Both the position numbers and the translations under genes were made by a program. This document shows, piece after piece, positions 1,465-49,297 of a DNA stretch of 64,000 bases. Numbering within the stretch: the stretch's first letter is position 1; each line of letters begins with the position of its first letter. Where the stretch lies: positions 32,001 through 96,000 of the IMG/VR virus record IMGVR_UViG_3300046786_000304. One strand, given 5' to 3'. Below the pieces are notes generated by a model. It ran no database searches and was not told where the DNA came from. It saw nothing but the letters and a program-made list of their open reading frames with translations. This DNA is from a virus (Duplodnaviria; Caudoviricetes).

Positions 1465-2345
1465 CATTAAGAACAGAAATTGATTTTGAAAAAGATAAGA
1501 ACTATGTACCAGTATTGGATCATGGTTTTGTAGGTCTAGTAGACCATATGGGCAGTGACAGCGCAATCGTGCAGGCCGCTCGTGTCAGCTATGGTGCTGG
1601 CACTAAACAAGTTCAAGACGATCGCAATCTTATTCGTTACTTAATGCGACATGAACACACAACTCCTTTTGAAATGTGCGAAGTAAAATTCCACATTAAA
1701 CTTCCTATCTTCGTTATGCGACAACTTGTACGGCATCGTACTGCCAGCATGAACGAATATAGTGCTCGTTATAGTGTGCTTACAGATGAGTTTTACATTC
1801 CTGAACTAGAACAAATCCAGAAGCAAAGCACAACTAACAAGCAGGGCCGTGAAGAAGCTGAATGGGGCTTTGAAGAAAAACGTGGAGTACAGCATGCCTT
1901 CCAACGTAGTTTCCATAATGCTTATAAAGAGTATGCTAGTTTGCTAGGTAAAGACGATGACGGGCTAGCACGTGAGTTGGCTAGAAGTGTGCTTCCAGTA
2001 GGCGGATATACAGAATTGTATTGGAAAGCCAACTTGAAGAACTTCTTACATATGGCTCGCTTACGTATGGATCCACACGCACAATGGGAGATCCGAGAAT
2101 TTGCCTCAGCTATGTATAACTTAGCCAAGCCACTATTCCCAGAAGCATGCCAAGCATTTGAAGACTATGCCGTTAACTCTGTCAAGCTTAGTGCTGGAGA
2201 ATACGAGCTAGTTAAGAACCTAATTAGTCATAGTAAGTGGGTGTCATTAGTCGAGAAGTACGGCAATGACGAAAAAGCCCTGGGCTTGGACGCAGGGCTT
2301 GGTATTCGTGAACTAAGAGAGTTTAAAGAAAAATTAGGTTTGTAA
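1461..2345 (+). CDS. thyX: FAD-dependent thymidylate synthase ThyX
   Basis: ThyX signature RHRTASMNEYSARYS, plus AARVSYG, HTTPFE and HAQWEIR motifs. Confidence 0.97.
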   Translation: MTLRTEIDFEKDKNYVPVLDHGFVGLVDHMGSDSAIVQAARVSYGAGTKQVQDDRNLIRYLMRHEHTTPFEMCEVKFHIKLPIFVMRQLVRHRTASMNEYSARYSVLTDEFYIPELEQIQKQSTTNKQGREEAEWGFEEKRGVQHAFQRSFHNAYKEYASLLGKDDDGLARELARSVLPVGGYTELYWKANLKNFLHMARLRMDPHAQWEIREFASAMYNLAKPLFPEACQAFEDYAVNSVKLSAGEYELVKNLISHSKWVSLVEKYGNDEKALGLDAGLGIRELREFKEKLGL

Positions 2346-2888
2346 TGGATCAATGCTTATCTCGTTGATATGTAGATAAGCAGGTTGTTCCGTTAACCAT
2401 TTAATATAATTGGCAGCATCCAGTATTGTAATTGTTTTACGATCTGGATGTTTTTCTTGCATGTTACTTAAAGTACCAAAGCTAATATAACTTACTCTTG
2501 GTCCTTCATTCCATACACCATTAAGGCACAGACTATTACAGTAGTCGCGTAATGCTTTCTTTTCCGCATTGTATAACCAATCCGTGGCTTTCATTACTCT
2601 ATCAGTTGTGCTACCAATAGCAATGATATGAGTTTTCTTTCCTAGTGCTTTTAATTTTTTGTATGTTGCTTCAAGTAACAATGTTTGATTAAATTTCCAT
2701 AATGCGCTACATAAAATAACAATATCATAGTCGACCGATAGTTCAGCAAAACGTTGTTGTTGTTCTGCTTTGGTTAAGTCATATCCGCAACTTCTACTTA
2801 TAAATGTTACATCATGCTCTGCTAGAGAATGTTTTAACCCTTCGGCTAGTCCGTAGATGCTATTACCTGCTACTAATATCTTTTTCAT
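2334..2888 (-). CDS. Short SDR-like oxidoreductase
   Basis: N-terminal Rossmann-like KKILVAGNSIYGLA, YxxxK (YNAEK), C-terminal INEISIDP typical of SDRs. Confidence 0.65.
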   Translation of the reverse strand: MKKILVAGNSIYGLAEGLKHSLAEHDVTFISRSCGYDLTKAEQQQRFAELSVDYDIVILCSALWKFNQTLLLEATYKKLKALGKKTHIIAIGSTTDRVMKATDWLYNAEKKALRDYCNSLCLNGVWNEGPRVSYISFGTLSNMQEKHPDRKTITILDAANYIKWLTEQPAYLHINEISIDPLQT

Positions 2889-4198
2889 TTAAACAATCTT
2901 TCATATTCTGGTGCAATATCTAATATACTGTGTCCACGTGCTTGGTCTAAGTACTTTGTAAATTTAATAAATTCAGGAAGTCTTTCACTATAATCAGCAC
3001 CTAACATATATTTTGTAATGCTGTTTAAAATGTTTTCAGCGTTTTTAGCAATTTCTTCCGGATACTCTGCTTTGAATTCTTCAATGCACTTAGCGTAGTA
3101 TTCAACTACTTCTTGTTTCATGTCTATAGGCAATACACGCACATTAACACGTTTTGGTCCATGTGCCACGTGATGTGTTATAATAGGACGCTTTTTAGTG
3201 CTATTAATCTTTTTAAATCCGCTACTCTGCAATTTCCATTTCATAAAACGAGGTATGTGCCAAATGTTATATGCTGTTACTGTACAGGCCAGCCAAGCAA
3301 GTATGTTTGGATTCTTTTCTGCGTATTCATCTAACTTTTGTAAGTTCTTATATGCTTGGCTCCACTTCAAAGGCCAACGCTGATACTCAACTGTTTCGCC
3401 CATGCCATCCATACTAGCACCAACTCGAACTTGTTTGAACTGTGTCCACATATCCAACACACGCTGTGGTAAGTTACTCATGTTAGTATTGTATTCAATG
3501 ATCATCTTTTTACTTTGACCCATGTCAATACATTTTTGTAAAAACTCATAATGACGTTCAATCATCATTGGCTCGCCTCCGGCCATATAAACGTGCTTGA
3601 TGTTTGGAATATTTGCTTCTATCTGTGTCCAAAAAGTTTCGCTGTTATGCCAATCATAGTCTGTGGTAGTTAATCGTCCGTTGTCATTGCGAGTTAGTTT
3701 AACTGTGCCGTGTGTATCTTTATATTCATCGCTGCCGTGATAGTCTGTCCACTGTTCATACCAAGTATGGCTATCAGTGGGACCGCACATACGGCAAGCT
3801 AAGTTACATAAGTTACCAAAACGCAGATCATAGTATTCTAGTTTTCTATCTTTAACTGTGCCGTCTGGTTCTGTAATATAACGAGCATCATCTATGCTAA
3901 ACTTCCAATTTTCTAATTCATATTGTCTGCGACTATTAAGACCACTAGCTTCTTCACTTTGACAACGACCGCACTCTTGACTCCACTCTCCTGTCAGCAT
4001 GTTCTTACGAACTTCTTTCATTAGAGTAGCGTTGCGAGCAAGTTCCATATTGTCACGGCCTGCATTGTAAGGTGTTCCATCTTCGTGTCTAACTACACCT
4101 TGATTCTCTGTTACATTAGCTTGACAACATACACGAATGTCGCCATTGTTTCGTACAGCTTGAAAGTTCCAAGGTATCGGGCAAAATGTATTACTCAT
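2885..4198 (-). CDS. Radical SAM protein with N-terminal SPASM/twitch-like domain
   Basis: CNLACRMC and GGEP motifs; N-terminal CPIPW..VCC..CGRC. Start placed at ATG 4198 (TAATG coupling) rather than 4213. Confidence 0.9.
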   Translation of the reverse strand: MSNTFCPIPWNFQAVRNNGDIRVCCQANVTENQGVVRHEDGTPYNAGRDNMELARNATLMKEVRKNMLTGEWSQECGRCQSEEASGLNSRRQYELENWKFSIDDARYITEPDGTVKDRKLEYYDLRFGNLCNLACRMCGPTDSHTWYEQWTDYHGSDEYKDTHGTVKLTRNDNGRLTTTDYDWHNSETFWTQIEANIPNIKHVYMAGGEPMMIERHYEFLQKCIDMGQSKKMIIEYNTNMSNLPQRVLDMWTQFKQVRVGASMDGMGETVEYQRWPLKWSQAYKNLQKLDEYAEKNPNILAWLACTVTAYNIWHIPRFMKWKLQSSGFKKINSTKKRPIITHHVAHGPKRVNVRVLPIDMKQEVVEYYAKCIEEFKAEYPEEIAKNAENILNSITKYMLGADYSERLPEFIKFTKYLDQARGHSILDIAPEYERLFK

Positions 4199-4980
4199 TA
4201 ATAATCCATCCATCCAATATAATTATCAACATTTTTTGCAGGAGCAACAAAATCTTGTATTTTTAATTTTATTTCTTTAATATTGTTTTCGATTGCGTTG
4301 CGTACAATAGTTGTTAGCACCATGTTATTTTCTTCTGTCAAATGACATATCCTATTATCTCTAATAAATCTTTTATTTTCTGTATCTTCATATCCCGCCG
4401 GGGTTCCTTTAAATATATATTGTTCGTGGTACCCGGGCATATTATTTAATTCCCATATCGTTATATCTTGTAATCCTATATAGCCTGGATCAGAACTTTT
4501 TACATCTATCGTAATTAAATTTTTAAAACTTTTAATTTTTTCTACTAATAATAAATTTACAGTATTTACATAATCATCGTCTTTCCAGAATTCAAAATAT
4601 AATCTTACACTATCAAATAATTTTAAATTAAAATCTGTGCCCGTTGGGTTAAATTTATCTTTGTATGTATTTTCATGAAGCAGGACATTTGAATAATGTG
4701 TATACCAATTTTTATTAGATAAAGTTTTTGATATGTCCGAGTTTTCTAAATAAGATGAATAAAATCTATCCGTAGTAGGAATTATCATAATATTAATGTC
4801 ATTCTTTTGATAATTTTCCATGTAATCAGCATAACATTTATAAATGGAATTTCCTGGATGGCCATAGTTGGTTACATCGTAGTACTCTTTTAAATAATTT
4901 ACCCAAAAATTTTGTTCGACATTTGGGTTCATTACACTACAGTAACTATCTCCGTATACTCCTATTGTTTTCTTATTCAT
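4198..4980 (-). CDS. SGNH/GDSL-like protein
   Basis: GVYGDSY, NYGHPGNSI and C-terminal NRICHL motifs; paralog of the next gene. Confidence 0.6.
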   Translation of the reverse strand: MNKKTIGVYGDSYCSVMNPNVEQNFWVNYLKEYYDVTNYGHPGNSIYKCYADYMENYQKNDINIMIIPTTDRFYSSYLENSDISKTLSNKNWYTHYSNVLLHENTYKDKFNPTGTDFNLKLFDSVRLYFEFWKDDDYVNTVNLLLVEKIKSFKNLITIDVKSSDPGYIGLQDITIWELNNMPGYHEQYIFKGTPAGYEDTENKRFIRDNRICHLTEENNMVLTTIVRNAIENNIKEIKLKIQDFVAPAKNVDNYIGWMDY

Positions 4981-8334: not shown

Positions 8335-8352
8335 AAATTAATAATATGCGTA

Positions 8353-8386: not shown

Positions 8387-9124
8387 ATGACCACTCCTAC
8401 AAACCAATATGGTGTCAGTACCGAACCTATTGATAGTTTTTCGAAACGAAACGACTATCCTGCAAATTGCAAATACCCACAAAATCTAGCAACTCCAAGA
8501 GACGTTAATTTTAATCCCGACATTCCTTTTTTACCAATTGACGATTGGAAAGACACAGAAGATTGGGAAAAGATGTATGCCGAAGCCAAAGCCTTAGAAA
8601 AACATTATGTACCACATAGGCATCATGAATCTCATAAAGGCTGGAGTAGTTTATGTATTCATGGTTTAAGTAGTGTACATACCGAAAGCAGTCATACATA
8701 TGGATTTAAAGACGATGAAGCTCCGTGGCGTTGGACTGATGTAGCAGATTGGTGTCCTACTATTAGAAACTTCTTTAAAGAAAAATTTGATTATAAAAAA
8801 TATTTCAGAGTTAGGATTATGAAATTAGCTCCAGGCGGCTATGTTATTCCACACAAAGATACCATCGATGTTGCAGAAAGTCATATTGGTCCTATTAATG
8901 TAGCGTTAAATCATCCTGCTGATTGTAAATTTTACATGGATGATATCGGTACTTTGCCATGGACTGCTGGCAGAGCTATTAAATTAAATTTATATAATGT
9001 TCATGCGGTTGTAAATCACAGCAACCAGGACAGATATCACATCATTGTACACGGACACGCTGGCAACACATGGCCTAACAGAATACTTAATAATTATAAA
9101 ACTTGGAGTAAGACGTATGAGTAA
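8387..9124 (+). CDS. 2OG-Fe(II) oxygenase, aspartyl/asparaginyl beta-hydroxylase-like
   Basis: RVRIMKLAPGGYVIPHKD (HxD), distal HAVVN and RYHIIVHG motifs. Confidence 0.85.
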   Translation: MTTPTNQYGVSTEPIDSFSKRNDYPANCKYPQNLATPRDVNFNPDIPFLPIDDWKDTEDWEKMYAEAKALEKHYVPHRHHESHKGWSSLCIHGLSSVHTESSHTYGFKDDEAPWRWTDVADWCPTIRNFFKEKFDYKKYFRVRIMKLAPGGYVIPHKDTIDVAESHIGPINVALNHPADCKFYMDDIGTLPWTAGRAIKLNLYNVHAVVNHSNQDRYHIIVHGHAGNTWPNRILNNYKTWSKTYE

Positions 9125-10628
9125 AAAATATATCAACGCATTAGTTACAGATAAAAGTAACATTGGCATGGACCCAATAGTGCGTGAAAGTTTGTTGACT
9201 TTCTATAGAAGAAATTTATGGATCGATAGCGTAGTAAATAATCCGATTCGTTCAGTTACATTACCTACAGAAGATGAATGTATTTCTGTGGCAGCAGATG
9301 GGTTAGACATTGAATTTGATTATTTAATTCTAACTTGGGAAGGAAATTTCTTTGATATCTATAGATATCATCATGAATGTATTGCCGCTATAGATGCTAT
9401 AGAAAATGACACAAACGGCAATTGGCTAGTAGCTGGCCATATCATGGATCAGGAACAAAACAGAATATTTAATCATGATCCAAGTTCTGCCGAGTGGAAG
9501 AATAGTTTTTGGTTATTCCCTATTACTGCGTTAATTAATTTAAAGAAATGGAAAGAACTTGGCAGGCCATTATGGGGATCAGAAATGGGCAAAGAATTAA
9601 TCGAACTAGTAACTGCTGTGCCATCCACAGATTGTGTGCATGATAATTACACTCCGTTGTCCGTAACATCAGGAGAAGGAACAAAGCAGACACGTGTTAA
9701 AAAGGGATGGAATTTCGTTAATGAAAGTTTAAAAGCAAATCTTCCTGTATTAAATTTACCTAAAAATGTTAGAGAGTTTCAAAATTACTTGTATCCCGAA
9801 AACAATATCAAACTTTTCAATGATTTCTGGCATTCATTATATAACATGCCTAAGGTAACATCTCAATACAGAAAAGTGTTAGAATCAGTGATTACTAGCA
9901 AATACGAACGACGCATTAAAGATTCTACATGGCAATGTTTCATTAGAAACACCGAAGATTATTATCCTGTCGAACACAAGCATAATTCATCGAATATTGA
10001 TTGGACTAGTATAGAAACTATAATGCTTCCATGTAGCGGATTTAAAGATTTTATACTCGCTATGGGTTTTAAGGGTGCGAAGAAGAAACTTAATATAATA
10101 CATTTTGATATTATTCCACAATGCGTTAAGATTCGACAACTTCTGATAGAACAGTGGGATGGACAAAGAAGTACGTTTAGTAAAACTTTGTTAGAAATTG
10201 GAAAATATTTCACCGTCGGACCGCCCGGAGATGTTTATCATATGAACTCAATGAAGACTCTGGAAGAAGCTTATGATCATATGTTACAGTTTTTTGGTAG
10301 CGAAGACAATTTAGAAAGATGCTGGAAAGAATTCCAAGCCTGTGATCATCGTTATGTAGCGGCAGATATGTTGTCAGACCCATGGATGGCAACAAAATTT
10401 GTCCAAGGTGATAAAAAGATTTATGTATGCCTTAGCGACATTGCCGGTTGGCGTAATAATCTTATAGCATATGGTTATAGATCTTTGCGTGACGACATTA
10501 TAAATTGTGTTAAAAATTTAAAAGCAAAGGGTCATGATGGATTAATAGATTATAAAGATCCTGCCACTGATTTGCAATTTTGGCACACGTTTGACGATGC
10601 TATAGCATACTTAGAAAAGAATTTGTAA
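9117..10628 (+). CDS. Two-domain hypothetical protein (possible transferase)
   Basis: Long ORF. Start placed at MSKKY (9117), overlapping the upstream stop. C-terminal half contains a 'FD..WDG' segment also seen in the next protein. Confidence 0.6.
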   Translation: MSKKYINALVTDKSNIGMDPIVRESLLTFYRRNLWIDSVVNNPIRSVTLPTEDECISVAADGLDIEFDYLILTWEGNFFDIYRYHHECIAAIDAIENDTNGNWLVAGHIMDQEQNRIFNHDPSSAEWKNSFWLFPITALINLKKWKELGRPLWGSEMGKELIELVTAVPSTDCVHDNYTPLSVTSGEGTKQTRVKKGWNFVNESLKANLPVLNLPKNVREFQNYLYPENNIKLFNDFWHSLYNMPKVTSQYRKVLESVITSKYERRIKDSTWQCFIRNTEDYYPVEHKHNSSNIDWTSIETIMLPCSGFKDFILAMGFKGAKKKLNIIHFDIIPQCVKIRQLLIEQWDGQRSTFSKTLLEIGKYFTVGPPGDVYHMNSMKTLEEAYDHMLQFFGSEDNLERCWKEFQACDHRYVAADMLSDPWMATKFVQGDKKIYVCLSDIAGWRNNLIAYGYRSLRDDIINCVKNLKAKGHDGLIDYKDPATDLQFWHTFDDAIAYLEKNL

Positions 10629-12688
10629 TGAGCAAACCTTATAAAATTTTAACAGAAGATATTATTTTAAAAGAAAAAGGAAGTTTAAATAATTCCTTTA
10701 AGCGTTATATAGGGCCAGCTGATAGTGTCTTTTCGTTGTTTGCAAGAAGCATGGGATACCGAGACTTTCCAAAAGAAGGTATGCCTGCTATGAATAATTA
10801 TGAGTTTGTAGTCTATGATAAACATAAAGAAAATATCGATATGTTTAAGCACATGTTAGAATGGGACGGCGATTCTGACGAGTCGGACAATTTTCAAAAC
10901 TTCGACGATCACTATGCTACTGGTAAATTAAAATATAAAATTAAAAACTTTCATTTCCCACGAAAACCTTTATTAGGTAGAATGCAAAAACATGGCTTTA
11001 GAGATTTTAAAGTTATGTGGGATATTTTTAGAAAAAGTAAATTTACATTTATTAATATCGATGTTATCCGTGATAACGGCAACTTCTGTAAATTTTTACA
11101 TGAATTACCTGAAATCGATATTCATTCTAGACAATTTGTTAAATTAGATTTTAACAAGAATGACTATAATTCTAAGATTTACACCAATGCTATTAATCAT
11201 ATACTACATGTGCTATGGATGAAAAGCCTTAAAGGTTATCAGAGTCTAGTAGAATTAATGGACGATGATGGCCAATCATACGAAGACTTTGCGGGCAAAA
11301 TATACGCAAAATTAAATCCAACGTTTTGCGTATTGCCATGGATGCATATTCAATATAAGCCCACAGGACAAAGTAAATTGTGCTGTAGGTATGATACTGT
11401 ACAAGAATTTAAAGAATACGAAAAAGATAAAACTCTAACAAATTTAAGTCAACTTGTGCCTGAACGTCTTAATTTAGTTATACAAAAGACTACCATGGAA
11501 AATAGTTTCCAAAGTAACTATTGGGACAATGCCAGAACATTAACTTTAGAAAATAAACCATTAAGCGGATGTCATAAGTGTTATAAAGAAGAACAAGTAT
11601 CCGGAGAAATATCAACGTCAATGAGACTAGGATCTAGCGTATTGTATAATGGCGGTTACTTACACAAAAAGCCCGGCTTGGACAAACCCATTATTAAATT
11701 CCTGGAAGTTGGTTTTGGTAATTATTGTAACCTGGCTTGTTTGACTTGTAATAGTACATTAAGTACATCATGGCACAACGATGAAATTAAATTAAATGAA
11801 ATCGCCGAAAAGTCTTTACAACGTCCAGTATTCCCTAAACTAGACAATATCAGATTCGAACCCAATGAAGAAACATTAAGTACTTTAGAATTAATTAAAT
11901 TTACAGGCGGCGAGCCTATGATTAATCCTGAGTTTATTAAATTCATTGACCTAGTCTGTGAAAAAGGTCATCCTGAAAGAATGAGCTTAGAGATTTATAC
12001 AAATTGTAGTTATATACCTAGTCCCAAGCTATTAGAGAATTTGAAGAAGTTCAAAAGCATACAACTTAACCTAAGCATAGATGCATATGGAGCAAAAAAC
12101 GATTATATACGCTATGGCAGTGAATGGCATGGCGAAGGTAAACAAACTGTTAGTAATGCCTTAGAGTTCTGGATGAAACAAGGTTTAGAAAATCAAAACA
12201 TTTATGTTATCATGGCAACTACTATGAGTGTATTAAATGTATTTGATATTCCAGAATTAGTATCTTGGTGGATGGACAAATATAAAAATGCTGGATTTAA
12301 AATCGCACAACGTACATCGTCTCTGCCATCGGAAGTTGAAGGCTTTTACAAATTACAGTTGGCATTTGAACCGTCTTATATTAGTACAAACATACTGCCC
12401 AGAGCGTACTATAGCGAAATCGAAGAATGGATAGCAGACTACGAATCAAACTTTACTACCAGGTATCCTGATTTGGGATTTATTCCACAGTCAATTAACG
12501 CAACATTGAATAAGTTAAAAAATGCTGTTGAACGTAGTAAAGGCAATGTCAATGATGCTAAACAATTTTTAAGCTATTTAGATAAGATGGATAAGATTAG
12601 AGGAAACTCTGCAGAACAAAGTATCCCTAAAATTGTTAGTAAGGTTAAAGAATACTTGCTAGCTCAGGATAAACCTCAGCAAAGCTAG
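10628..12688 (+). CDS. Fusion: unknown N-terminal domain + SPASM/twitch-like domain + radical SAM
   Basis: About 230-aa N-terminal extension, then FCVLPW..LCC..CHKC, CNLACLTC and TGGEP. Confidence 0.88.
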   Translation: MSKPYKILTEDIILKEKGSLNNSFKRYIGPADSVFSLFARSMGYRDFPKEGMPAMNNYEFVVYDKHKENIDMFKHMLEWDGDSDESDNFQNFDDHYATGKLKYKIKNFHFPRKPLLGRMQKHGFRDFKVMWDIFRKSKFTFINIDVIRDNGNFCKFLHELPEIDIHSRQFVKLDFNKNDYNSKIYTNAINHILHVLWMKSLKGYQSLVELMDDDGQSYEDFAGKIYAKLNPTFCVLPWMHIQYKPTGQSKLCCRYDTVQEFKEYEKDKTLTNLSQLVPERLNLVIQKTTMENSFQSNYWDNARTLTLENKPLSGCHKCYKEEQVSGEISTSMRLGSSVLYNGGYLHKKPGLDKPIIKFLEVGFGNYCNLACLTCNSTLSTSWHNDEIKLNEIAEKSLQRPVFPKLDNIRFEPNEETLSTLELIKFTGGEPMINPEFIKFIDLVCEKGHPERMSLEIYTNCSYIPSPKLLENLKKFKSIQLNLSIDAYGAKNDYIRYGSEWHGEGKQTVSNALEFWMKQGLENQNIYVIMATTMSVLNVFDIPELVSWWMDKYKNAGFKIAQRTSSLPSEVEGFYKLQLAFEPSYISTNILPRAYYSEIEEWIADYESNFTTRYPDLGFIPQSINATLNKLKNAVERSKGNVNDAKQFLSYLDKMDKIRGNSAEQSIPKIVSKVKEYLLAQDKPQQS

Positions 12689-19115: not shown

Positions 19116-19123
19116 ATTAATAT

Positions 19124-23113: not shown

Positions 23114-23119
23114 TAATCC

Positions 23120-29213: not shown

Positions 29214-29218
29214 AACGA

Positions 29219-29226
29219 TATTTATA
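29219..29226 (-). promoter_or_regulatory. T4-type late promoter box TATAAATA
   Basis: + strand TATTTATA at 29219-29226 in the intergenic gap, 5 nt upstream of ATG 29213. Confidence 0.6.
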
Positions 29227-29771: not shown

Positions 29772-29773
29772 TT

Positions 29774-32965: not shown

Positions 32966-32966
32966 T

Positions 32967-37387: not shown

Positions 37388-37395
37388 TTTTTTCC

Positions 37396-37956: not shown

Positions 37957-37966
37957 ATTATTTTTC

Positions 37967-38512
37967 TCATCTATCTCTTGCTTGTAACACTGGCTTATCT
38001 GTAGGCCATTCTATGTTGAATTTACTGTCATTCCATTTGATTACGCCCTGTGCTTTTTCATCAACATAGTCGCCTTGATAAAACAGATTATAATGGAATA
38101 CACAATCTGTTAAGGCAAAGTGTCCGTTGGCGAAGCCAGGAGGAACAAGTACTTGGTCTCTAGTCTTTTCACTGATAATATAACTTTCCCACTTACCGTA
38201 TGTAGTACTGTTTTCTCTTACATCCATTACTACAAGATATATATCTCCAACTAAAGCCTGTACTAATTTCCAAGTCTTGTCGTCATAGTGTAATCCACGT
38301 AGCACGCCTTGATATGACTTGCTGAATCTGCCATGGATATTAACATCCTTGGGCAGTAATTTCATAACTGGATGTGTTTCGCTGTGAAACGTTGTGAAAA
38401 TTTCACCGCGATATTCTCTATAGACACTGGGGCTGTATACAGGAACATCTGTACCAAACTTAGCTAAGTATGATACATCAACATTATCCCATTGGGGCAA
38501 TTTATAATTCAT
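37967..38512 (-). CDS. rmlC: dTDP-4-dehydrorhamnose 3,5-epimerase-like (cupin)
   Basis: RGEIF, GVLRGLHY, VPPGFANGH and WNDSKFNIEWP motifs. Start at MNYK (38512). Confidence 0.88.
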   Translation of the reverse strand: MNYKLPQWDNVDVSYLAKFGTDVPVYSPSVYREYRGEIFTTFHSETHPVMKLLPKDVNIHGRFSKSYQGVLRGLHYDDKTWKLVQALVGDIYLVVMDVRENSTTYGKWESYIISEKTRDQVLVPPGFANGHFALTDCVFHYNLFYQGDYVDEKAQGVIKWNDSKFNIEWPTDKPVLQARDR

Positions 38513-41597: not shown

Positions 41598-42256
41598 GGT
41601 ATTTGTATATTCTTAAGAAATGTTTTTACTTTCTTAGCCAAAGCAGAATGTGCTTTTTCATTGGGATGATACCCGTCACTACATTTCATTCCTTTGTTTA
41701 CACAATATACTTCATATACAGAAGTATTGTAGCCTAAGACAAATTTATTTGTTGGCAATAACTTAACCATGTTTTTATATTGCTCTTCGAATGGTTCTTT
41801 GTTTATTTCTTCTAAAAAAGAATTAATAAAAGCGTAGGGTATTTTCTTTGCTTCTAAAAAGGATGCTACGAATATTTGTTGTGTGTAATATTCCATCAAG
41901 CCTTCGTAGTCATTGTATACATGTTCGTACCAATGATCTTTCTTCTTTTTAAGATATGGATCTTCGGGCTCATAACCTAATAACACATTTTCCCATTTTT
42001 TAAATTCTGGGTGATATATTGCTGTACGGGAAAGTCCAGTCCAAGAAAACAGCACCAATACTTGTTCTGGATTTTCTATATCAGCAAAATCGTTGAGTAA
42101 ATTAATTATGCTGAGTTTGTTTGAGCCACCTGGAATACCTTTGTTAACAACTGGCAGTTTCATTGACTTGCCCAATTTAGCAGGCCACGCATCCTCAGAT
42201 GCTACACCGTCGCCAGATGTAAAGCTATCTCCGTATGCGTAAATCTTGTCAATCAT
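41594..42256 (-). CDS. SGNH/GDSL-like protein
   Basis: AYGDSFTSG, NKGIPGGSN and DGYHPNEKAH motifs. Start at 42256 with SD AAGGA. Confidence 0.75.
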   Translation of the reverse strand: MIDKIYAYGDSFTSGDGVASEDAWPAKLGKSMKLPVVNKGIPGGSNKLSIINLLNDFADIENPEQVLVLFSWTGLSRTAIYHPEFKKWENVLLGYEPEDPYLKKKKDHWYEHVYNDYEGLMEYYTQQIFVASFLEAKKIPYAFINSFLEEINKEPFEEQYKNMVKLLPTNKFVLGYNTSVYEVYCVNKGMKCSDGYHPNEKAHSALAKKVKTFLKNIQIP

Positions 42257-43694
42257 TTTCCTTATATACCCCGGTCTCAGCAAAAGTAATTCCAGACTGT
42301 TCTACTAACTTGACAACTTCATATTTTTTATTAAGTTCTATGCTTTCATACCAGTCGGCAATTTCTGGAAATGTATTAACTATGTTTTTGTTTCTTCTAG
42401 CATCATACTGTGAATAGAAACTTTTGAAGTCATGGAATAATGCTGTCTTATCATGTGTTGTAGATACGTGTCCAGTTTGTACAACTTCAAGATAATCAAT
42501 TAATCGTTTAATGCTGGCTTTTTCTCCAGCTTCTAAATACTGACTATGCTCGTGTTTGTTATACCAAGCAGATAGTTTTGCGTGTACTTCGTCTTTGAGA
42601 TCGTTGGGTAGCGTAACTGGACTCATGTATGCGGGCCAGCGTAGAATATTTAAATCCAAATAAGGTCTATTGTTGCCATATTTTTGTTTAAGTTCCAACA
42701 TATCGTCCATGAACTCTGTGATACTAAACAGGCACAGGTTAGATATAGTCATCATGATTGTGACATTTCTAAACTTAGCATTTTCGATAAAGTTAACTAG
42801 ATTACTGCGCCATACTTTATAGTCCATACCGTCACGTAAATACTCTGCGTGTAAGCCAAAGCTTTCGTTGCTAGTAAACAAATCAAACTCTTTAACTGGC
42901 AATGTCTTAGTTACTTCAATTAATCGTTCCAATGCTCGTGGACTTGAGCCTAGGTTACTGTTAACTGCAAAGCGCATATCCAAGTATTCATTCTTTTCTG
43001 TGATGATATCAATAAAGCGCCAAAAGTTTTGACTAACTGTACACTCACCGCCAGTGATGCGTAGTTCTTGCAAGCTCTTAGACAAGTCGGGCCACCATTC
43101 AAAGAAAGCCTCTACATAAGGATTGTCGTCTAAATGACGTCCATATGCTGTACTCCAAGCACCATCAGTTTGATATGCGCCACCTCCGCCGCCTTCGGCA
43201 ACAAAGTTTTGATAAGGACCATTCTTGGCAATATCATAACTCCATGTTGTACTGTAACCTGCGTTACAGTAACTACAAGCAAAGTTACATTGTCTATCAA
43301 AGCTAATTTCTAATGTTTTAAGATTAACATCATCAGCCCAGTTCATTGACTGAATCTTTTTAATATCTTCTGCGCTGTATATAATACTTTTATTAATGCG
43401 ATCGCTGATGTTGTTTCTACCAATGCCTTCTACTTTCCAGCAATAACCGCACTCTGCCGGCTTTTTACCTTCCAGCATCATTTTACGCATACGCTTTTTA
43501 TGATCAGTGTTATGCAAACCGCTGGGGTTGTAACTGATTTCACTAACGTCAATTGGATGAGGCAAAGGTAAGTGACAGCTACCGGTATAACCAGACCCTA
43601 AAAAGATACTGGCATTATACCACTTAGCCGCACAAAAGCTGGGACTAATTGAATTGAGATTTTCATCTCTCCATTTAATTAAGTCATCAGACAT
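42249..43694 (-). CDS. Radical SAM protein with N-terminal CxxKW/SCH domain
   Basis: CAAKW..GSCH..CGYCW, CNFACSYC and TGGE motifs. Confidence 0.9.
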   Translation of the reverse strand: MSDDLIKWRDENLNSISPSFCAAKWYNASIFLGSGYTGSCHLPLPHPIDVSEISYNPSGLHNTDHKKRMRKMMLEGKKPAECGYCWKVEGIGRNNISDRINKSIIYSAEDIKKIQSMNWADDVNLKTLEISFDRQCNFACSYCNAGYSTTWSYDIAKNGPYQNFVAEGGGGGAYQTDGAWSTAYGRHLDDNPYVEAFFEWWPDLSKSLQELRITGGECTVSQNFWRFIDIITEKNEYLDMRFAVNSNLGSSPRALERLIEVTKTLPVKEFDLFTSNESFGLHAEYLRDGMDYKVWRSNLVNFIENAKFRNVTIMMTISNLCLFSITEFMDDMLELKQKYGNNRPYLDLNILRWPAYMSPVTLPNDLKDEVHAKLSAWYNKHEHSQYLEAGEKASIKRLIDYLEVVQTGHVSTTHDKTALFHDFKSFYSQYDARRNKNIVNTFPEIADWYESIELNKKYEVVKLVEQSGITFAETGVYKEND

Positions 43695-45264
43695 CTTTGT
43701 TAACTACCTTTTGTTTCATTGCTTTACAAATGTTATAAAATTCTGTGTACTCTGGATATACTTCTAAAAAGTTTGTACCATAGCGACGATCCAAGTCATT
43801 GACAAAGTCATAGAACTTAGCACGATTTAATGTAAAGTCTTTGTTACCTTCAAAATCATTCTTTGAGTTGTAAGCAATGTTCAAACATACACGTTTGAAT
43901 TTTTCAAGCTCAAACTCTTCAAACGCATGATGCATCTTCCAAGTCTTAGTCTGTGTTGTATGATCCGCCATATAGTTAATACTTGGCAACAAATACTCTT
44001 GGATAAGATCTTTACTGGCCCACTGTGCGTCCAAGAATGTTGGATTACGCAAGTAAGGCAAGTCAATGCCATTGATACTAGGATGACTTGTAGTCTTTTT
44101 ACTTCTATCTGTATATGACTCTCCGGGATAGGCAAAGTTAAAGCCTGTGTCCTTTTCCCACATGTCAGCAACAACTGGGTTAGGATTATATTTCTTTCTA
44201 AGTTCTAGTTGCCATTCAAACAATTTTTGTATACTGGAAATACTTAGAATGTTAAATGTAACCATCGTAGTAATTCTAATATTACCCATGGCCATAATCT
44301 GTTCGTAACGCTTACAGAACTTTTCAAAGTCCAAGCCTGGACGCAGATATTCGGCACGTTCGCCCCAACCATCTACACTGGTAAAGATAGTTAACTTCTT
44401 AATGTAATTGCCGCGGCTTAGGATCTCAGCACGTTCAATGAACTTGTCCCATAACTTGTCAGGTACACCCATGTTCGTATTGATACTAAGTTCAAGTTCA
44501 GGATTTGGATTTTCAATGAACCAATCCATACTTCTATAAGTTTCTTTACTAAGCAAAGGCTCGCCGCCTGTGATACGGAATACATGTAAGTGTTTGTAAG
44601 CTTCTGGCCACCACTTCCAAAATGCGTCAATGTAAGGATTGAATTCGTTGTTCTTATAACTTAGACTGTCTAAGTCCTTTTGCCAACCTTGTGCCCATAG
44701 AGTATGGTCTGTATTTTCTAATAGCTTAACAGGACCGTTTTGTTTTAGTTCCTCAACCCATTTACTGCTATACTCAGGACCGCAGTAAACGCATTTAAAG
44801 TTACATACGTTGCTAAAGTCTACTTCCAAATAACTTGGGTAAAAGTCTTGACTAGGATCACTGGCTTGAATCTCGTCATGCTTTTCCAATGCCCATGGCT
44901 CTAAACTCTTGTAAAATCTATCACTGGGACTTTTGTTATCTTCTACACGCCAGCAGTAGTCGCATTCTTTGGGACGCTGGCCCTCCATCATTTCTCTTCT
45001 TGCTTTTCTTAATATGCCGGTGTTAAACAATGCGCCAGGATTACGTTGAATTTCCTCTAATGGAATCTTATGTGGCACCGGGTGGTGACAACTGTGTGTC
45101 ATACCAGTACCCAAATGCATGGTAACTTGTGTAAATTTAGCAAGGCAAAATCCAGGACCTGTACTATCTAATAATTCTTTTGTTTTATCGATATTCGGTC
45201 CAGTACGGGCTACTTTTTTATCGTAGCCGATATCCCAGTTAATATCGCTGAGTTTCTTTTTCAT
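43687..45264 (-). CDS. Radical SAM protein with N-terminal CxxKF/SCH domain
   Basis: CLAKF..HSCHH..CDYCW, CNFKCVYC and TGGEP motifs. Confidence 0.9.
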   Translation of the reverse strand: MKKKLSDINWDIGYDKKVARTGPNIDKTKELLDSTGPGFCLAKFTQVTMHLGTGMTHSCHHPVPHKIPLEEIQRNPGALFNTGILRKARREMMEGQRPKECDYCWRVEDNKSPSDRFYKSLEPWALEKHDEIQASDPSQDFYPSYLEVDFSNVCNFKCVYCGPEYSSKWVEELKQNGPVKLLENTDHTLWAQGWQKDLDSLSYKNNEFNPYIDAFWKWWPEAYKHLHVFRITGGEPLLSKETYRSMDWFIENPNPELELSINTNMGVPDKLWDKFIERAEILSRGNYIKKLTIFTSVDGWGERAEYLRPGLDFEKFCKRYEQIMAMGNIRITTMVTFNILSISSIQKLFEWQLELRKKYNPNPVVADMWEKDTGFNFAYPGESYTDRSKKTTSHPSINGIDLPYLRNPTFLDAQWASKDLIQEYLLPSINYMADHTTQTKTWKMHHAFEEFELEKFKRVCLNIAYNSKNDFEGNKDFTLNRAKFYDFVNDLDRRYGTNFLEVYPEYTEFYNICKAMKQKVVNKDV

Positions 45265-45273
45265 TTTTTGCCT

Positions 45274-46245
45274 TTAATTTATGCTGTTATCTACTTGGCT
45301 CTCTTTAACTAGAGCGCCTAACCTGGGAGGGTTAATAAAACTTTCTTTAAACATGCGACTGCCATTAAAATCTAATTCTGCAATCTCTAAATTTAAATTT
45401 GTGCGTAGTTCTTGACCAAACTTGTAAATTTCTTTTTTCAATTTCTCTGGATCATAGTTCCATCCAGTGGCATTACATCTTCCGCCTTCTCCCTCGAACT
45501 GCGGTTTAACACTATTTTCCCAGAACTGATCATGCCAGTCAAAATCTCTACAAGCTGTAAAATCAAAACTATCTTTAGCCAAGTTAGTTAGATATGCGCC
45601 TAGTCTAGTTCCAAACATTGCCCAATGTCCGTTCTCTACATCAGCACCTACACTTGACCATACCAAGAAACGTTTATAGTTACGCTCATGAACTTGTTCT
45701 TTAAGACGACGCGGATCCACTGTTACACCGCCACTGAGTAACAGTTTAACGCCTTCGCGGAATCCAGCTCTGTATGCTTGGTAAGCACTGGCATTATTGT
45801 GTACATCACAGTAGATATTATTCATTTGGAAGTAATAGATATCCCAACAGAAATCAACTTTGGCTTTTGGATCATCTGCGTTTTCATGTGTACGCATTTG
45901 TTCGACTACATGCTTGGGCCACATCTTAATACCGCCATTGCCGTAGACTAATCCATTGATAACATTCTTGCCGGCCCAACTAACAATATCATGTTTGCCT
46001 ATCTTGCTCATGTCTAATTCTAAACTAAAGAATTCATCACGAACAATGTTGTCGGCATCGATGGTAATAAAGCGATCTGTTTCTGCTACTCTGGCTGCTT
46101 CTTTGTGTGCGTTATCGAAACCTTTAACGCCATGAACACGTTTAGCCCATGGTGCTTTTTCTAATAGGTTTGCATAATTCTTATCTGCGTTTGGTTCGTC
46201 GTAGCTTAAAAATACGATATCAAAACTTGTAATAGGTACTGACAT
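45274..46245 (-). CDS. Glycosyltransferase-like protein (GT-A, DxD), paralog family 1
   Basis: FLSYDEPNAD, TIDADN, NGLVYGNGGIKMW and AYRAGFREGVKL motifs. ATG at 46245 with SD GAGGA. Confidence 0.6.
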   Translation of the reverse strand: MSVPITSFDIVFLSYDEPNADKNYANLLEKAPWAKRVHGVKGFDNAHKEAARVAETDRFITIDADNIVRDEFFSLELDMSKIGKHDIVSWAGKNVINGLVYGNGGIKMWPKHVVEQMRTHENADDPKAKVDFCWDIYYFQMNNIYCDVHNNASAYQAYRAGFREGVKLLLSGGVTVDPRRLKEQVHERNYKRFLVWSSVGADVENGHWAMFGTRLGAYLTNLAKDSFDFTACRDFDWHDQFWENSVKPQFEGEGGRCNATGWNYDPEKLKKEIYKFGQELRTNLNLEIAELDFNGSRMFKESFINPPRLGALVKESQVDNSIN

Positions 46246-47185
46246 TTGCGTCCTCAATATGTAAATGGTGATAATTCGAAATTATCTTAACTGGTGTAGC
46301 GGCTTTTAATTTTAACTCTACTAAATTAAAATTATCTAATTCATTGGTATTTAAAGTGACTGTGTCTAAAATCTGGCTAGGATCGTTGCTGTTATACATA
46401 TAAAAGGTTATCTTGTTGTCCAGATTAAAATTTTTAGTTTCAGACATTACGCTTTGAATTTGTAGTTTACTTCCAATTTGTTTATATACCAACGTTGGTT
46501 TAAATTTTGTAGATGCCACTGGAATAAAATACGGATCTTTATCCACACTGATTTTAAAATTATGATTATAGTGTAAAAAACGTAAGTTGTCAAATGAATT
46601 TGGATCATTGGGCAACCATTTACAAGAAAAAACTTGGTCCTGGTTGTAAAATAAATCTTTGACGTTTAACCTTAGTGTATCGTAAAGTCTGCTTGGTTCT
46701 TGTTTATCTATACAATAAATTTCCATGCTTTCAGGCATCATTGATAAATGATACTCAGTGGTCTTTTCTTTAGTGTATTCTTGTTTGAAATTTTCATATA
46801 TGAAATTGGCATTGATTTTCTTTGTTACAAAATCGCAATGTAAATGAATAAAATTCTTGTCATCGCTTTCGCCGTAGACATAATCAAATTCCCATCGTTT
46901 ATGATCTCTATGCTTGTACAGAACTCTAGTGTCTGTATCAGCATCGTATCTTATTTTTAACTTATGTAATGGAAGTTTATTATAAAAGATTTCACGAAGT
47001 AAATCATTTTCATCTAATTCTAAATTTGCCCGACGAGGGTTTGTTAGTTCGACTTCGTAGGGTGCAATGCCTAATACTTGATAAGTTAATTTGTCATACT
47101 CAACATAAAATTTTCTATTCTTACTTTCTTTCTTTTTAAGAATAGTTTTTTGTATGTCAAATTCGCTATCATCGATGTTAAGCAT
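46220..47185 (-). CDS. Hypothetical protein
   Basis: 321-aa ORF in operon context; no motif recognised. Confidence 0.7.
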   Translation of the reverse strand: MLNIDDSEFDIQKTILKKKESKNRKFYVEYDKLTYQVLGIAPYEVELTNPRRANLELDENDLLREIFYNKLPLHKLKIRYDADTDTRVLYKHRDHKRWEFDYVYGESDDKNFIHLHCDFVTKKINANFIYENFKQEYTKEKTTEYHLSMMPESMEIYCIDKQEPSRLYDTLRLNVKDLFYNQDQVFSCKWLPNDPNSFDNLRFLHYNHNFKISVDKDPYFIPVASTKFKPTLVYKQIGSKLQIQSVMSETKNFNLDNKITFYMYNSNDPSQILDTVTLNTNELDNFNLVELKLKAATPVKIISNYHHLHIEDANVSTYYKF

Positions 47186-48025
47186 TTAAATGAATTTTTT
47201 TCTTAGATTAGTTAAAGTGTCGTCAGTTAACCAAGCACTTGTGTTATATTTAACTAAGCCTAATTGAATATAATTTTCAATTTTTATATCGCCTTGGTCG
47301 TTTACCCAATAAGATAAAAACTCAGTCCATGGTTTTTTTGACCATTGATCATTAACAAAGCTATTTTCTCTAATACTTAAATCAATTAAATTTACAAAGT
47401 CAAATTTAGTTATTTTAAGTCCTAATATTTTGTACATCAATGACATTAACCACTGTGGCCATAGGTATTTAGGAAATGGCGGCATTGAATTGTTTTCTTT
47501 ATCAGCAAAGAAATCAATAATTTGATTTTGATTGTATGTAGAAGCAATCAGTACTGCCATGCCGAATACATAATCACAGCCCTTGTCTTTGTTGAAATAT
47601 ATTGCGTCTAATATAGATCCTTCGCCAAAACTTTTTTGCTCAACTGAACCTTCAGTGTATAAAGAATAATCTAGCAATTCTCCATTGAAACTGGATCTAG
47701 TTTTGGGTATAACTATACTATTCATACCTCTAAGATTTTCCCAAACATCAACGTTAAAATTAGTTAAAATTTGATCAGGATTAAATGCAATAGTTTTTGT
47801 ATAAGGGCTGGCCAATAAAGAATGGAAATATCTTGCTGATAAAATCTCATCGGGTTCCATATAAATTTCTTGATCAATATACAGCAAATATTTTTTTAAG
47901 TTTTTTTCATGGGCAATAATACTGATTGGTCTTTCCTTGTCAAACAGTCGTATACTCTTAACCAGAAGTTCAACTCTGGTTAAGTTTTTCATATTACAAT
48001 TAACTATTAAGTAACCTTCAGTCAT
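47186..48025 (-). CDS. Degenerate GT-A-like protein, paralog of 48018-48914
   Basis: GYLIV.., SPYTKTIAFNPD (NxD where the paralog has DxD). Confidence 0.45.
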   Translation of the reverse strand: MTEGYLIVNCNMKNLTRVELLVKSIRLFDKERPISIIAHEKNLKKYLLYIDQEIYMEPDEILSARYFHSLLASPYTKTIAFNPDQILTNFNVDVWENLRGMNSIVIPKTRSSFNGELLDYSLYTEGSVEQKSFGEGSILDAIYFNKDKGCDYVFGMAVLIASTYNQNQIIDFFADKENNSMPPFPKYLWPQWLMSLMYKILGLKITKFDFVNLIDLSIRENSFVNDQWSKKPWTEFLSYWVNDQGDIKIENYIQLGLVKYNTSAWLTDDTLTNLRKKFI

Positions 48026-48914
48026 ATATCATTGTTTTAATTTTATCATAATGTCTCAGAATGGCCATTTTATTCATGACGTGGACATTTTCATTTTTAA
48101 CTCTACTAGCAATACTTTTCCACAATTCTTTTGGATCAGGACAAACTAAGACCATGTCATTGATTTCTTTGAACTCAGCAATGTCGTCGATTTGTTCGCT
48201 GAATCGCATAACTTTACCAGGTAGTTCATGTATTAAATTTCCCTGTCTATGACCATTTAAAATGTGTACAGCTATACTTACAGCATAGTCCGTTCTAAAC
48301 AATACTCCAGGAAACTTATACAACCATTTATAGTAGTTATAGTTTTCCTTGACATGTTCCCATACTCCAAAGAATAACTTAGCAAGTTCGCTGTCGCTTC
48401 TCCAGTATACAGCAGTCGACCACCACATGTCAATACCATCTGGATGAAGTTTTTGTTCCCATATACGTGGTTTATAATTTCGAACACTTAATGCCTGTTT
48501 GTACATAGCAACTTCACTGTCTGTATCAAAAATAGCATCTAATGTATCATTGCCAATCAAATAGTCAACGTCGATCATCAATGTTTTGTTGTAAGGGCTT
48601 TTGTTGAAAATACTGTGCTTGTTTTTATTATTAAATTGCGTAGTAAATTCATTCCATGGACTATCTCGATGTGTTCGAGTATTTCGTTCGTGTGTCACAT
48701 TATCAATGATAATATGATCAAAAGTTTCTGCTGCCAGTGCAGGAGTTAGTTCTGCTGTTAACGCATCGAACGTTGGCTGATCTGTTAATAACGTTACATG
48801 ATTGTTAGTCATGTGTAACTTAACACATCTGGCCGCTACCAATGCTAATTTTTCGTAATCGATTTTGCCATTGTTATAAGCAATCAGCAATATACCAGAA
48901 TCAAACTTACTCAT
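48018..48914 (-). CDS. Nucleotide-diphospho-sugar transferase (GT-A, GT8-like)
   Basis: GILLIAYNN, SPYNKTLMIDVDY (DxD), WSTAVYW and FRTDYAVSIA motifs. Confidence 0.65.
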   Translation of the reverse strand: MSKFDSGILLIAYNNGKIDYEKLALVAARCVKLHMTNNHVTLLTDQPTFDALTAELTPALAAETFDHIIIDNVTHERNTRTHRDSPWNEFTTQFNNKNKHSIFNKSPYNKTLMIDVDYLIGNDTLDAIFDTDSEVAMYKQALSVRNYKPRIWEQKLHPDGIDMWWSTAVYWRSDSELAKLFFGVWEHVKENYNYYKWLYKFPGVLFRTDYAVSIAVHILNGHRQGNLIHELPGKVMRFSEQIDDIAEFKEINDMVLVCPDPKELWKSIASRVKNENVHVMNKMAILRHYDKIKTMIYD

Positions 48915-49260
48915 TTAGACCAACCAACCCTTTAGTGTCACGTTGTTTTTTGAGTTTTTCGTTTTCCACATAATATTCATTTAATGCTTCTGTATAAGCA
49001 CTGAAAAGCTTTTCGTGGAATTCTTTAATGTTAGTAACTAGTACCGGGTTTTCGTTGTCGTCTAAAAATATATAACGTTCAACATTCATGTCTATTAATT
49101 GTTTAACAAAATTAATTAATTCTAAGTTTGTTGTAAAAAGAGAACTCATGTAACCAATAGTTAACATGGTATTCATGCGTTGTTTGAGATTTAGCTTTTG
49201 GTTGTTCAGCGTTAACCGATAGTTACTGAACTCCAAAGCAGCCTTGAGTTTATCGTCCAT
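48907..49260 (-). CDS. Hypothetical protein, first gene of the modification operon (possible tail-fibre chaperone)
   Basis: Likely start at MDDKL (49260) with SD GGAG; sits between the tail-fibre-like gene and the GT genes. Confidence 0.6.
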   Translation of the reverse strand: MDDKLKAALEFSNYRLTLNNQKLNLKQRMNTMLTIGYMSSLFTTNLELINFVKQLIDMNVERYIFLDDNENPVLVTNIKEFHEKLFSAYTEALNEYYVENEKLKKQRDTKGLVGLNE

Positions 49261-49289
49261 CCAGAGCTCCATTATGTGCTATTTTAATT

Positions 49290-49297
49290 TATTTATA
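49290..49297 (-). promoter_or_regulatory. T4-type late promoter box TATAAATA
   Basis: + strand TATTTATA at 49290-49297 in the intergenic gap, facing the GT/radical SAM operon. Confidence 0.65.

Follow-up and report, generated by a model that had tools for sequence, protein, structure and literature searches.

A tail-fibre-linked 47-kb island of glycosyltransferase, radical SAM and sugar-tailoring genes in a freshwater jumbo phage contig: a candidate virion glycosylation system

We analysed a 64,000-nucleotide stretch of DNA (the window), positions 32001-96000 of a single 233,464-bp freshwater contig held as an IMG/VR virus record (GC 0.374; CheckV completeness estimate 65%; no terminal repeats). 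Positions 2334-49297 of the window are occupied by an island of 49 densely packed genes with almost no intergenic space, which at 47 kb makes up one fifth of the contig and encodes predicted glycosyltransferases (GTs), radical S-adenosylmethionine (SAM) enzymes and further sugar-tailoring enzymes. This is in good agreement with a first-pass annotation that had described nearly 50 contiguous, tailoring-rich genes starting directly behind fibre and baseplate genes on the same strand; the fibre/baseplate identities of the upstream genes were likewise found. Glycosylation of virion proteins is, in our assessment, the best-supported explanation of the island, with chances that we put a little short of even.

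The contig is that of an uncultured phage, a relative of the Rak2/PA5oct-type jumbo phages. A chimeric or bacterial origin, a concern raised in the first-pass annotation, was rejected: the sequence comes from an IMG/VR virus record, its coding density is 95%, both sides of the genome hold structural genes, and further phage contigs show synteny with the island.

The inventory is based on a map of open reading frames (ORFs), Pfam and NCBIfam scans, all-versus-all BLAST and motif checks. The island is divided into three transcription units rather than forming one operon: 49272 to 12645 on the minus strand, 8387 to 12688 on the plus strand and 8334 to 2334 on the minus strand. Its features are as follows (aa, amino acids; SDR, short-chain dehydrogenase/reductase; AF2, AlphaFold2; basis of assignment in brackets).

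48907..49272, minus strand: s121, conserved 121-aa helical protein, first gene of the constant core (homologs)
48018..48914, minus strand: GT8-like (glycogenin-like) GT-A glycosyltransferase, 298 aa, constant core (motif and PDB profile)
47186-48025, minus strand: degenerate GT8-like paralog in a core position, with NPD replacing DxD (hhalign)
46220-47185, minus strand: core-position protein without assignment (homolog at the same position in relative L074)
45274..46257, minus strand: GT2-fold glycosyltransferase, family B, constant core (paralog of 25136-27579)
42249..45264, minus strand: two N_Twi_rSAM radical SAM enzymes (NF033640, 300 and 284 bits; CX3CX2C)
41594-42283, 40710-41597 and 39931-40713, minus strand: three SGNH/DUF6071-like proteins (Pfam DUF6071/GDSL; hhalign)
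38502-39938, minus strand: orphan family C member (paralogy)
29229..38536, minus strand: sugar cassette (Pfam, NCBIfam; syntenic in freshwater relative L013)
29074..29226, minus strand: second exact TATAAATA and, behind it, a 46-aa acidic, Gln/Glu-rich ORF (no family match)
27604..29076, minus strand: NodU/CmcH-type O-carbamoyltransferase (Carbam_trans_N and Carbam_trans_C, E 1e-36 to 1e-53; NodU-like by NCBIfam)
25136-27579, minus strand: three family B transferases of GT2 fold (fold search with an AF2 model)
24292-25149, minus strand: MT285, 285-aa class-I SAM-fold protein (weak thermospermine-synthase match)
12645..24292, minus strand: radical-SAM-rich block with eight radical SAM enzymes (Pfam, NCBIfam, BLAST, CX3CX2C)
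12645-13901, 16507-17712, 17712-19115 and 21878-23113, minus strand: N_Twi enzymes of that block
13898-14959, 19873-20943 and 23120-24292, minus strand: class II radical SAM enzymes of the same block
20940-21881, minus strand: class III radical SAM enzyme of the block
14956-15777, minus strand: oxygenase-like protein in the block (HxD...H motif read by eye)
15774-16514 and 19124-19876, minus strand: SGNH-like proteins in the block (hhalign)
8387..12688, plus strand: opposite-strand unit behind GATAAATA, with an oxygenase, a 527-aa unknown and a 686-aa radical SAM protein
8387-9124, plus strand: Asp/Asn-beta-hydroxylase-type oxygenase, Asp_Arg_Hydrox (Pfam)
9045-10628, plus strand: 527-aa protein (listed TTG start)
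10628-12688, plus strand: 686-aa protein, a 230-aa N-domain without match followed by an N_Twi radical SAM
7132-8334, minus strand: N_Twi radical SAM, last unit (NCBIfam)
6902-7132, minus strand: conserved 76-aa protein, last unit
5743-6924, minus strand: class III radical SAM, last unit
4198-5819, minus strand: two SGNH-like paralogs, last unit (BLAST, hhalign)
2885-4213, minus strand: N_Twi radical SAM, last unit (NCBIfam)
2334-2888, minus strand: short SDR-like protein, last island gene (NCBIfam)

Several enzyme counts of the first-pass annotation were reproduced exactly: there are 14 radical SAM enzymes, each with an intact CX3CX2C motif, one carbamoyltransferase (27604-29076), one RmlC-like protein (37967-38536) and four SDRs, namely three sugar epimerase/dehydratase types (31041-33956) and the short protein at 2334-2888. 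Other counts stood in part. Three of the eight proteins called SGNH-like are recognised by Pfam (DUF6071/GDSL), the other five having just a G(D/C)S block and a weak hhalign match. The approximately nine GT-like proteins resolve into the GT8-like enzyme, its degenerate paralog and four GT2-fold proteins, while three orphan paralogs yield only a weak GT10 lead. Both halves of a thiamine pyrophosphate (TPP) E1 pair are present (E1-alpha-like, 36758-37387; E1-beta/Transket_pyr, 29229-29771), with the genes 7 kb apart and not adjacent. One of two methyltransferases is a Methyltransf_24 protein (37396-37956) and the other a weak class-I-fold protein (24292-25149); similarly, one of two 2-oxoglutarate oxygenases is assigned as Asp_Arg_Hydrox (8387-9124) and the other (14956-15777) shows the eye-read motif only. 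The small or unknown island ORFs gave nothing in Pfam at E<=5, and a PHROGs search with ten island or core proteins returned no family for any island protein. The arrangement of the opposite-strand unit (8387-12688) is also found in another locus (L012). The listed TTG start of the 527-aa protein overlaps the upstream gene by 80 nt, and an ATG near 9117 (MSKKYINAL...) would be the more usual kind of start.

The sugar cassette encodes, in order, the RmlC-like protein, Methyltransf_24, the E1-alpha-like protein, two family C proteins, three SDRs, a 139-aa unknown, an SGNH-like protein and the E1-beta-like protein. One of the three sugar SDRs is 4,6-dehydratase/epimerase-like and two are GDP-fucose-synthase-like; the TPP subunits, which resemble pyruvate dehydrogenase E1, are shortened to 209 aa (alpha-like) and 180 aa (beta-like). 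Taken together, the SDRs, RmlC-like protein, TPP pair and methyltransferase look like a pathway of the 6-deoxyhexose type. Two-carbon-branched deoxysugar pathways employ E1-alpha/beta-like TPP enzymes.

The products of the island all appear to be soluble. No transmembrane-like segment was detected in the 49 proteins, a Kyte-Doolittle value of 1.6 being reached nowhere except in one Rossmann strand, and Pfam scans of the island proteins found no Wzx, Wzy or ABC component, no Gtr-type protein and no polyprenol-phosphate transferase; the earlier observation that flippases, polymerases and multi-transmembrane proteins are missing thus holds. This bears on a rival explanation, remodelling of the host envelope, in which unusual nucleoside diphosphate (NDP)-sugars and peripheral transferases would feed the O-antigen, capsule or teichoic-type machinery of the host and so alter the surface of the infected cell, for example to block co-infection. 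Lipopolysaccharide (LPS) and capsule loci typically contain GT8, SDR, RmlC-like and carbamoyltransferase families, a chromosomal cellular counterpart of the island has a TagF-like Glyphos_transf gene, and this is how the host recognition clusters of pelagimyophages have been read (PMC7029224). However, the complete lack of membrane segments (0/49) and of the transporters and transferases just named argues against envelope remodelling, which we consider unlikely, although the host's own machinery could supply the missing membrane-bound steps.

The first-pass annotation had placed an exact promoter box ahead of the cluster, and TATAAATA is indeed located at 49290-49297 (minus strand), 17 nt ahead of the first ATG of the island (49272). 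On both strands of the whole genome we found 13 exact copies against ~43 expected from base composition, an approximately three-fold depletion, and 9 of the 13 are no more than 35 nt upstream of a start codon. Among the genes with an exact copy ahead of them are two structural ones (tail sheath and head-decoration-like) and two of the island, namely its first gene and the small ORF before the carbamoyltransferase gene. The copy ahead of this ORF lies at 29219-29226 (minus strand); the 46-aa ORF begins 5 nt on, its stop overlapping the carbamoyltransferase start (ATGA). GATAAATA is found 23 nt upstream of the fibre gene 50409-51368 as well as ahead of the plus-strand unit, and the relaxed form NATAAATA stands at 16-30 nt ahead of many structural-region genes, of that same fibre gene and of the plus-strand unit at 8387. 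Since the motif is depleted genome-wide, clustered before starts and located ahead of structural genes, we conclude that it is a real promoter element, common to the island and the structural genes. By analogy with T4, we infer that it acts late. A late-type promoter would change the host surface only shortly before lysis, which is a further argument against envelope remodelling. The relaxed NATAAATA also marks the structural gene block at ~117-150 kb of the genome. Outside the window, an exact TATAAATA is found directly ahead of a tenth N_Twi gene (genome 222173-223480, in the stretch 222140-223492, minus strand), which stands alone and far from the island.

The constant core of the island starts with s121, homologs of which are present in 42 of 80 viral loci examined and in the cultured Ralstonia phage RsoM2USA (ORF354); profile searches of Pfam, PHROG and PDB gave no match for it. 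In the GT8-like protein that follows, D115 and D117 of the DxD motif and H278 are invariant in 28 homologs. Its PDB profile search returned glycogenin-1 and -2 only (E 1.8e-5; ~105 residues aligned, which span the nucleotide-binding half with the DxD), and comparison with Atlas gave GT8/Nucleotid_trans (nucleotide-diphospho-sugar transferase) clusters at 0.95-0.97, while Pfam PF01501 was not matched at E<=0.01. The degenerate paralog (47186-48025) aligns with the GT8-like profile at an hhalign probability of 49% (E 1.8e-4). Glycogenin is a GT8 enzyme that self-glucosylates on a protein Tyr; it has the DxD and the distal His in common with the core transferase, next to which the phage encodes a protein with a Tyr-rich loop.

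Four paralogs constitute family B, which has no sequence match in profile searches of Pfam, PHROG or PDB. The AF2 model (pLDDT 89.6) consists of a GT-A domain and a helical C-domain; the top PDB structures found by Foldseek were SunS/ThuS, WrtF, PBCV-1 A64R and GtrB (E 1e-4 to 1e-3), all of the top 30 Swiss-Prot AFDB models were GT2 enzymes, and D57 and D59 of the DxD motif are invariant. On the strength of this model, family B proteins are GT2-fold glycosyltransferases. In two viral loci they are fused in tandem to an MT285-like SAM-fold domain (family B-family B-MT285, 890-936 aa; L046:9026-11698 and L095:9059-11869). Many other family B homologs bear N-terminal domains of 220-540 aa without assignment. 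Family C comprises three ~480-aa orphan paralogs; Atlas provides the weak GT10 lead (0.79-0.80), PDB profiles gave no match, and no Pfam domain was found in any of the best 120 of 421 homologs.

The genes that flank the island are the following.

60748..63999, minus strand: baseplate wedge (gp6-like), extending beyond the window and 1151 aa long in the genome (tblastn)
52019..60751, minus strand: giant 2910-aa virion/fibre protein (27% identity to RsoM2USA ORF361)
50409..51368, minus strand: tail-fibre protein with a Peptidase_G2/IMC-like C-terminus (weak Pfam match; PHROG tail fibre matches)
49312..50409, minus strand: loop protein ('YGprot') next upstream of the island, with its N-domain helical and its C-domain a beta-sandwich (AF2 model)
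1461-2345, plus strand: ThyX (PF02511, E 3e-58), overlapping the last island gene by 12 nt in convergent orientation

The wedge gene product is 35-41% identical (tblastn) to baseplate wedge proteins of Rak2/PA5oct/Atu_ph07/SCTP-2-type jumbo myoviruses, and RsoM2USA ORF361, the counterpart of the giant protein, is a virion protein confirmed by mass spectrometry (PMC8504454). The giant protein has a weak CBM_5_12 match around residue 2514, and freshwater relative L013 has a 6498-aa protein where it would stand. Megablast of the fibre flank against GenBank phages returned no match.

The loop protein carries a (Tyr-Gly)n insertion at residues 230-287, the sole strongly Tyr-rich stretch in the genome, which is disordered in the AF2 model (pLDDT 79). 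The corresponding loop of relatives is S-S-P-Y-S-x-N, its Tyr near-invariant, and the (YG)n expansion is found in this phage and two relatives. Members of the family lie directly upstream of the 121-aa gene in most loci that have this gene. Because the conserved Tyr loop lies next to a glycogenin-like first transferase, we put forward the hypothesis, which this juxtaposition suggests, that the loop is O-glycosylated. Glycosylation of Tyr by the GT8-like enzyme is, in turn, a conjecture by analogy with glycogenin.

Family B matches at least 569 IMG/VR loci, of which we compared 80 to follow the island across viruses. A recurring order was evident: one or more tail fibres, a ~300-350-aa loop protein, the 121-aa protein, the GT8-like protein, a ~280-aa protein (often a GT8-like paralog), a ~200-aa protein, family B twice, often the SAM-fold and 76-aa proteins, and then 0 to ~10 radical SAM or other genes. 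Homologs of the fibre protein 50409-51368 stand ahead of the module in 24 of the 80 loci. Freshwater metagenomes commonly contain close homologs (80-93% identity), on contigs reaching 128 kb. In RsoM2USA a minimal eight-gene core (ORF354-347) comes right after the genes for baseplate wedge, giant virion protein and fibre; the succession of fibre, loop protein, s121, GT8-like and family B is kept there, with ORF353 as the GT8-like gene, ORF350 and ORF348 as family B and ORF349 as a radical SAM. When the core proteins s121, GT8-like, family B and N_Twi were searched by tblastn against 50,697 GenBank phage records, RsoM2USA was the only phage recovered, with exceptions for the radical SAM query in Vibrio phages K566/K567 and one marine single-virus contig. 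The small cassette of the cultured Vibrio phage K566 (L001, 18455-29423) has three radical SAM genes and ends in a 225-aa protein with 9 Tyr in 40 residues. The synteny check called for in the first-pass annotation therefore came out in favour of a link to tail-fibre genes that is conserved across very distant phages, a position that envelope remodelling leaves unexplained.

Behind the core, the genes vary. Relative L026 has carbamoyltransferase, family B and radical SAM genes in common with the window at 75-85% identity, and its upstream cassette differs, consisting of a cupin, an NTP-transferase-kinase fusion, a shikimate-dehydrogenase-like protein and a class II aldolase. In L074 the same flanks (giant protein, fibre, ThyX) enclose the core followed by unrelated genes, with no radical SAM; ThyX, homologs of 537-1142 and homologs of the gene before it also border the island there. 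These patterns point to a constant core with mosaic variable cassettes that are exchanged between relatives, resembling bacterial surface-glycan loci.

A cellular counterpart is located at ~817-856 kb of CAWFCE010000002 (L021-L023), a 1.27-Mb contig of a metagenome-assembled genome, whose 'Parcubacteria' label seems odd for a contig of this size. The cluster spans ~35 kb and has ~15 radical SAM genes, with up to 54% identity to the phage ones; it further encodes a radical SAM-GT2 fusion, an NTP_transferase (sugar nucleotidyltransferase), TagF-like Glyphos_transf, GT4, GT28 and split carbamoyltransferase-like genes. AsnB-like, aminotransferase, Sua5/YrdC and TsaD-like genes are also found there, and enolase and iPGM (phosphoglycerate mutase) genes adjoin.

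Nine of the 14 island radical SAM enzymes belong to N_Twi_rSAM (NCBIfam NF033640), scoring 173.6-425 bits, above the curated cut-off of 170; the other five fall under this cut-off and make up two smaller classes, II and III, for which single-sequence PDB searches gave generic core matches only (NifB and anSME). The nine aligned N_Twi proteins have four invariant N-terminal Cys ahead of the radical SAM core with its CX3CX2C motif, and in two of them Pfam SPASM matches at the N-terminus. NF033640 is a computationally defined family for which we found no characterised member or reaction; among 8000 candidates scored, 2546 database clusters belong to it at E<=1e-10, frequently in arrays of 5-15. 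Among solved proteins, the one closest in sequence to the N_Twi core is TvgB (8VPO), a cyclopropyl synthase of peptides that are ribosomally synthesised and modified post-translationally (RiPPs), followed by SkfB, viperin and BlsE. In a viral locus, N_Twi is fused to family B in a single 643-aa protein (L045:3478-5409).

The relationship to TvgB and SkfB raises the possibility of RiPP-type maturation, in which the radical SAM enzymes (twitch/SPASM-like) and the Asp/Asn-hydroxylase-type oxygenase would act on a ribosomal substrate (by, for instance, cross-linking or epimerising the Tyr-Gly loop, or on a small peptide) and SunS-like transferases would glycosylate it. Glycocin S-glycosyltransferases head the structural matches of family B, the (YG)n loop is encoded next door and the island has small conserved ORFs of 76 and 46 aa, all of which would suit such a pathway. 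However, the likeness to RiPP enzymes is limited to the generic radical SAM core, Pfam scans of the island found no RRE/PqqD-like domain, leader peptidase/protease or exporter, and the 76- and 46-aa ORFs are without Cys or hypervariable cores. Furthermore, the NDP-sugar cassette, the GT-radical SAM fusions and the sugar enzymes of the cellular cluster point to carbohydrate. We regard RiPP-type maturation as decidedly unlikely and, because of these fusions, the cellular cluster and the island's own sugar-nucleotide cassette, favour sugar-level chemistry: it is more likely that the N_Twi enzymes act on sugars rather than on protein.

ThyX on the other flank draws attention to the phage DNA itself, on whose bases the island could build a sugar-containing adduct for restriction evasion. 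Glycosylated and hypermodified DNA is known from phages, and thymidine hypermodification can involve radical SAM enzymes. However, the ThyX gene lies on the opposite strand and its product is a canonical PF02511 enzyme, and Pfam and NCBIfam scans of the island revealed no base-hydroxymethylating enzyme, DNA kinase, pyrophosphorylase, base-exchange enzyme, TET/JBP-type oxygenase or DNA-binding family. The promoter type common with structural genes, the conserved fibre linkage and the setting of the cellular counterpart among cell-envelope-type sugar genes equally disfavour DNA hypermodification, which we hold to be very unlikely.

Glycosylation of virion proteins accommodates these observations as follows. 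Because the contig is a phage, the enzyme set soluble, the promoter of the structural type and the fibre linkage conserved, a cytoplasmic, late, virion-directed glycan is the most economical reading. The island would be a late-transcribed, wholly cytoplasmic glycan factory, genetically tied to the tail-fibre module. Its constant core (the 121-aa protein, glycogenin-like GT8, family B and SAM-fold protein) would start and extend the glycan, and the variable cassettes would supply and tailor the sugars through a pathway of the NDP-6-deoxyhexose type that includes a methyltransferase and a TPP-dependent pair for two-carbon branching. The carbamoyltransferase and ~8 SGNH-like (de)acylases could add further tailoring, and the 14 radical SAM enzymes probably carry out epimerisation, oxidation, dehydration or C-C chemistry on sugars. 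The acceptor is most likely a virion protein, the best candidate being the beta-sandwich loop protein immediately upstream, and the fibre apparatus would thereby gain a glycan coat that varies between strains, in analogy to a bacterial O-antigen locus but on a phage. There is precedent for virion glycoproteins in this broad group, at least two having been reported for jumbo phage XacN1 (PMC5852040). The fullest version of this scheme, a phage-borne 'O-antigen locus' in which the GT8 enzyme primes the Tyr/Ser-rich loop of a receptor-binding-type protein, GT2-fold enzymes extend and N_Twi arrays rewrite the sugars to give strain-specific virion glycans, is in our view doubtful as a whole.

A number of points weigh against virion glycosylation. 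Most GT8 enzymes glycosylate LPS sugars, not proteins, and the nearest relative of the N_Twi core, 8VPO, is a peptide-modifying enzyme, even if the likeness spans the generic core alone. The island has no sugar nucleotidyltransferase. The loop protein, the candidate acceptor, is without a recognisable fold relative and is taken to be a virion protein from the position of its gene; its complex prediction with the GT8-like protein (score 0.00) speaks neither for nor against. Fold searches with it (Foldseek against PDB, BFVD and VIA wide) returned uncharacterised viral proteins and weak jelly-roll-, galectin- and receptor-binding-head-like rows (Z<=6.1). Late timing is deduced from the motif, by analogy with T4. 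Finally, in three loci (L043, L052 and L066) the family B/radical SAM block occurs without nearby fibre genes.

The closest published parallel is the host recognition cluster (HRC) of pelagimyophages and cyanomyophages, which has been interpreted as modifying the host O-chain (Zaragoza-Solas et al. 2020, PMC7029224). Like the island, the HRC is ~35-45 kb long, hypervariable and located in the structural region beside tail fibres; it is GT-rich, with GT8 the commonest, has LPS-type sugar genes and radical SAM cassettes gained and lost between close relatives, and is without experimental characterisation. Compared with it by synteny, the island shows the same defining combination of hypervariability, position beside tail fibres, GTs and radical SAM cassettes. 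They differ in that the HRC is found between VrlC and gp14, whereas the island lies between fibres and ThyX in a Rak2/PA5oct-type freshwater jumbo phage. In addition, 12 radical SAM genes have been noted in a marine genome of T4-like type (PMC5332604). Fibre-linked hypervariable GT8/radical SAM islands are therefore not new as a genomic phenomenon, and the novelty claimed in the first-pass annotation has to be narrowed: comparable islands are already published, none of them characterised biochemically. To these the present case adds its scale (47 kb, 14 radical SAM enzymes), another phage lineage, a core transferase that resembles glycogenin, a loop protein with a conserved Tyr, fusions of GTs to radical SAM enzymes and a minimal version in a cultured phage.

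Known virion glycosylation systems, such as those of the PBCV-1 capsid (A64R and others), mimivirus fibrils and mycobacteriophage capsid and tail, likewise use soluble virus-encoded transferases on structural proteins, which in the phage would take place in the cytoplasm. However, the PBCV-1, mimivirus, mycobacteriophage and XacN1 systems comprise 2-12 genes and no radical SAM arrays, and glycan and acceptor are putative here; XacN1, although of the same broad jumbo phage group, is without the island's gene families (tblastn). Bacterial O-antigen and capsule loci are similar to the island in cassette-like variability and in their 4,6-dehydratase-like, 3,5-epimerase-like and reductase-like enzymes and methyl- and carbamoyltransferases, from which the island differs in having no Wzx/Wzy/ABC transporter, initiating polyprenol-phosphate transferase or nucleotidyltransferase.

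If the fibre apparatus is decorated as proposed, phage particles would be covered by a glycan layer, variable and tailored by enzymes, whose complexity has so far been seen only in giant eukaryotic viruses and on bacterial surfaces, with bearing on host range, adsorption, immune and defence recognition and phage engineering; strain-specific virion glycans, if real, would determine host range or conceal fibres from defences and grazers. Whatever the target of the island, the fusions of N_Twi enzymes to glycosyltransferases make it likely that new radical chemistry on carbohydrates will come from this family. Uncultured phages commonly have the module (one core family alone is found in at least 569 IMG/VR loci), which is nearly absent from cultured ones, and the minimal version in RsoM2USA makes the question experimentally tractable.

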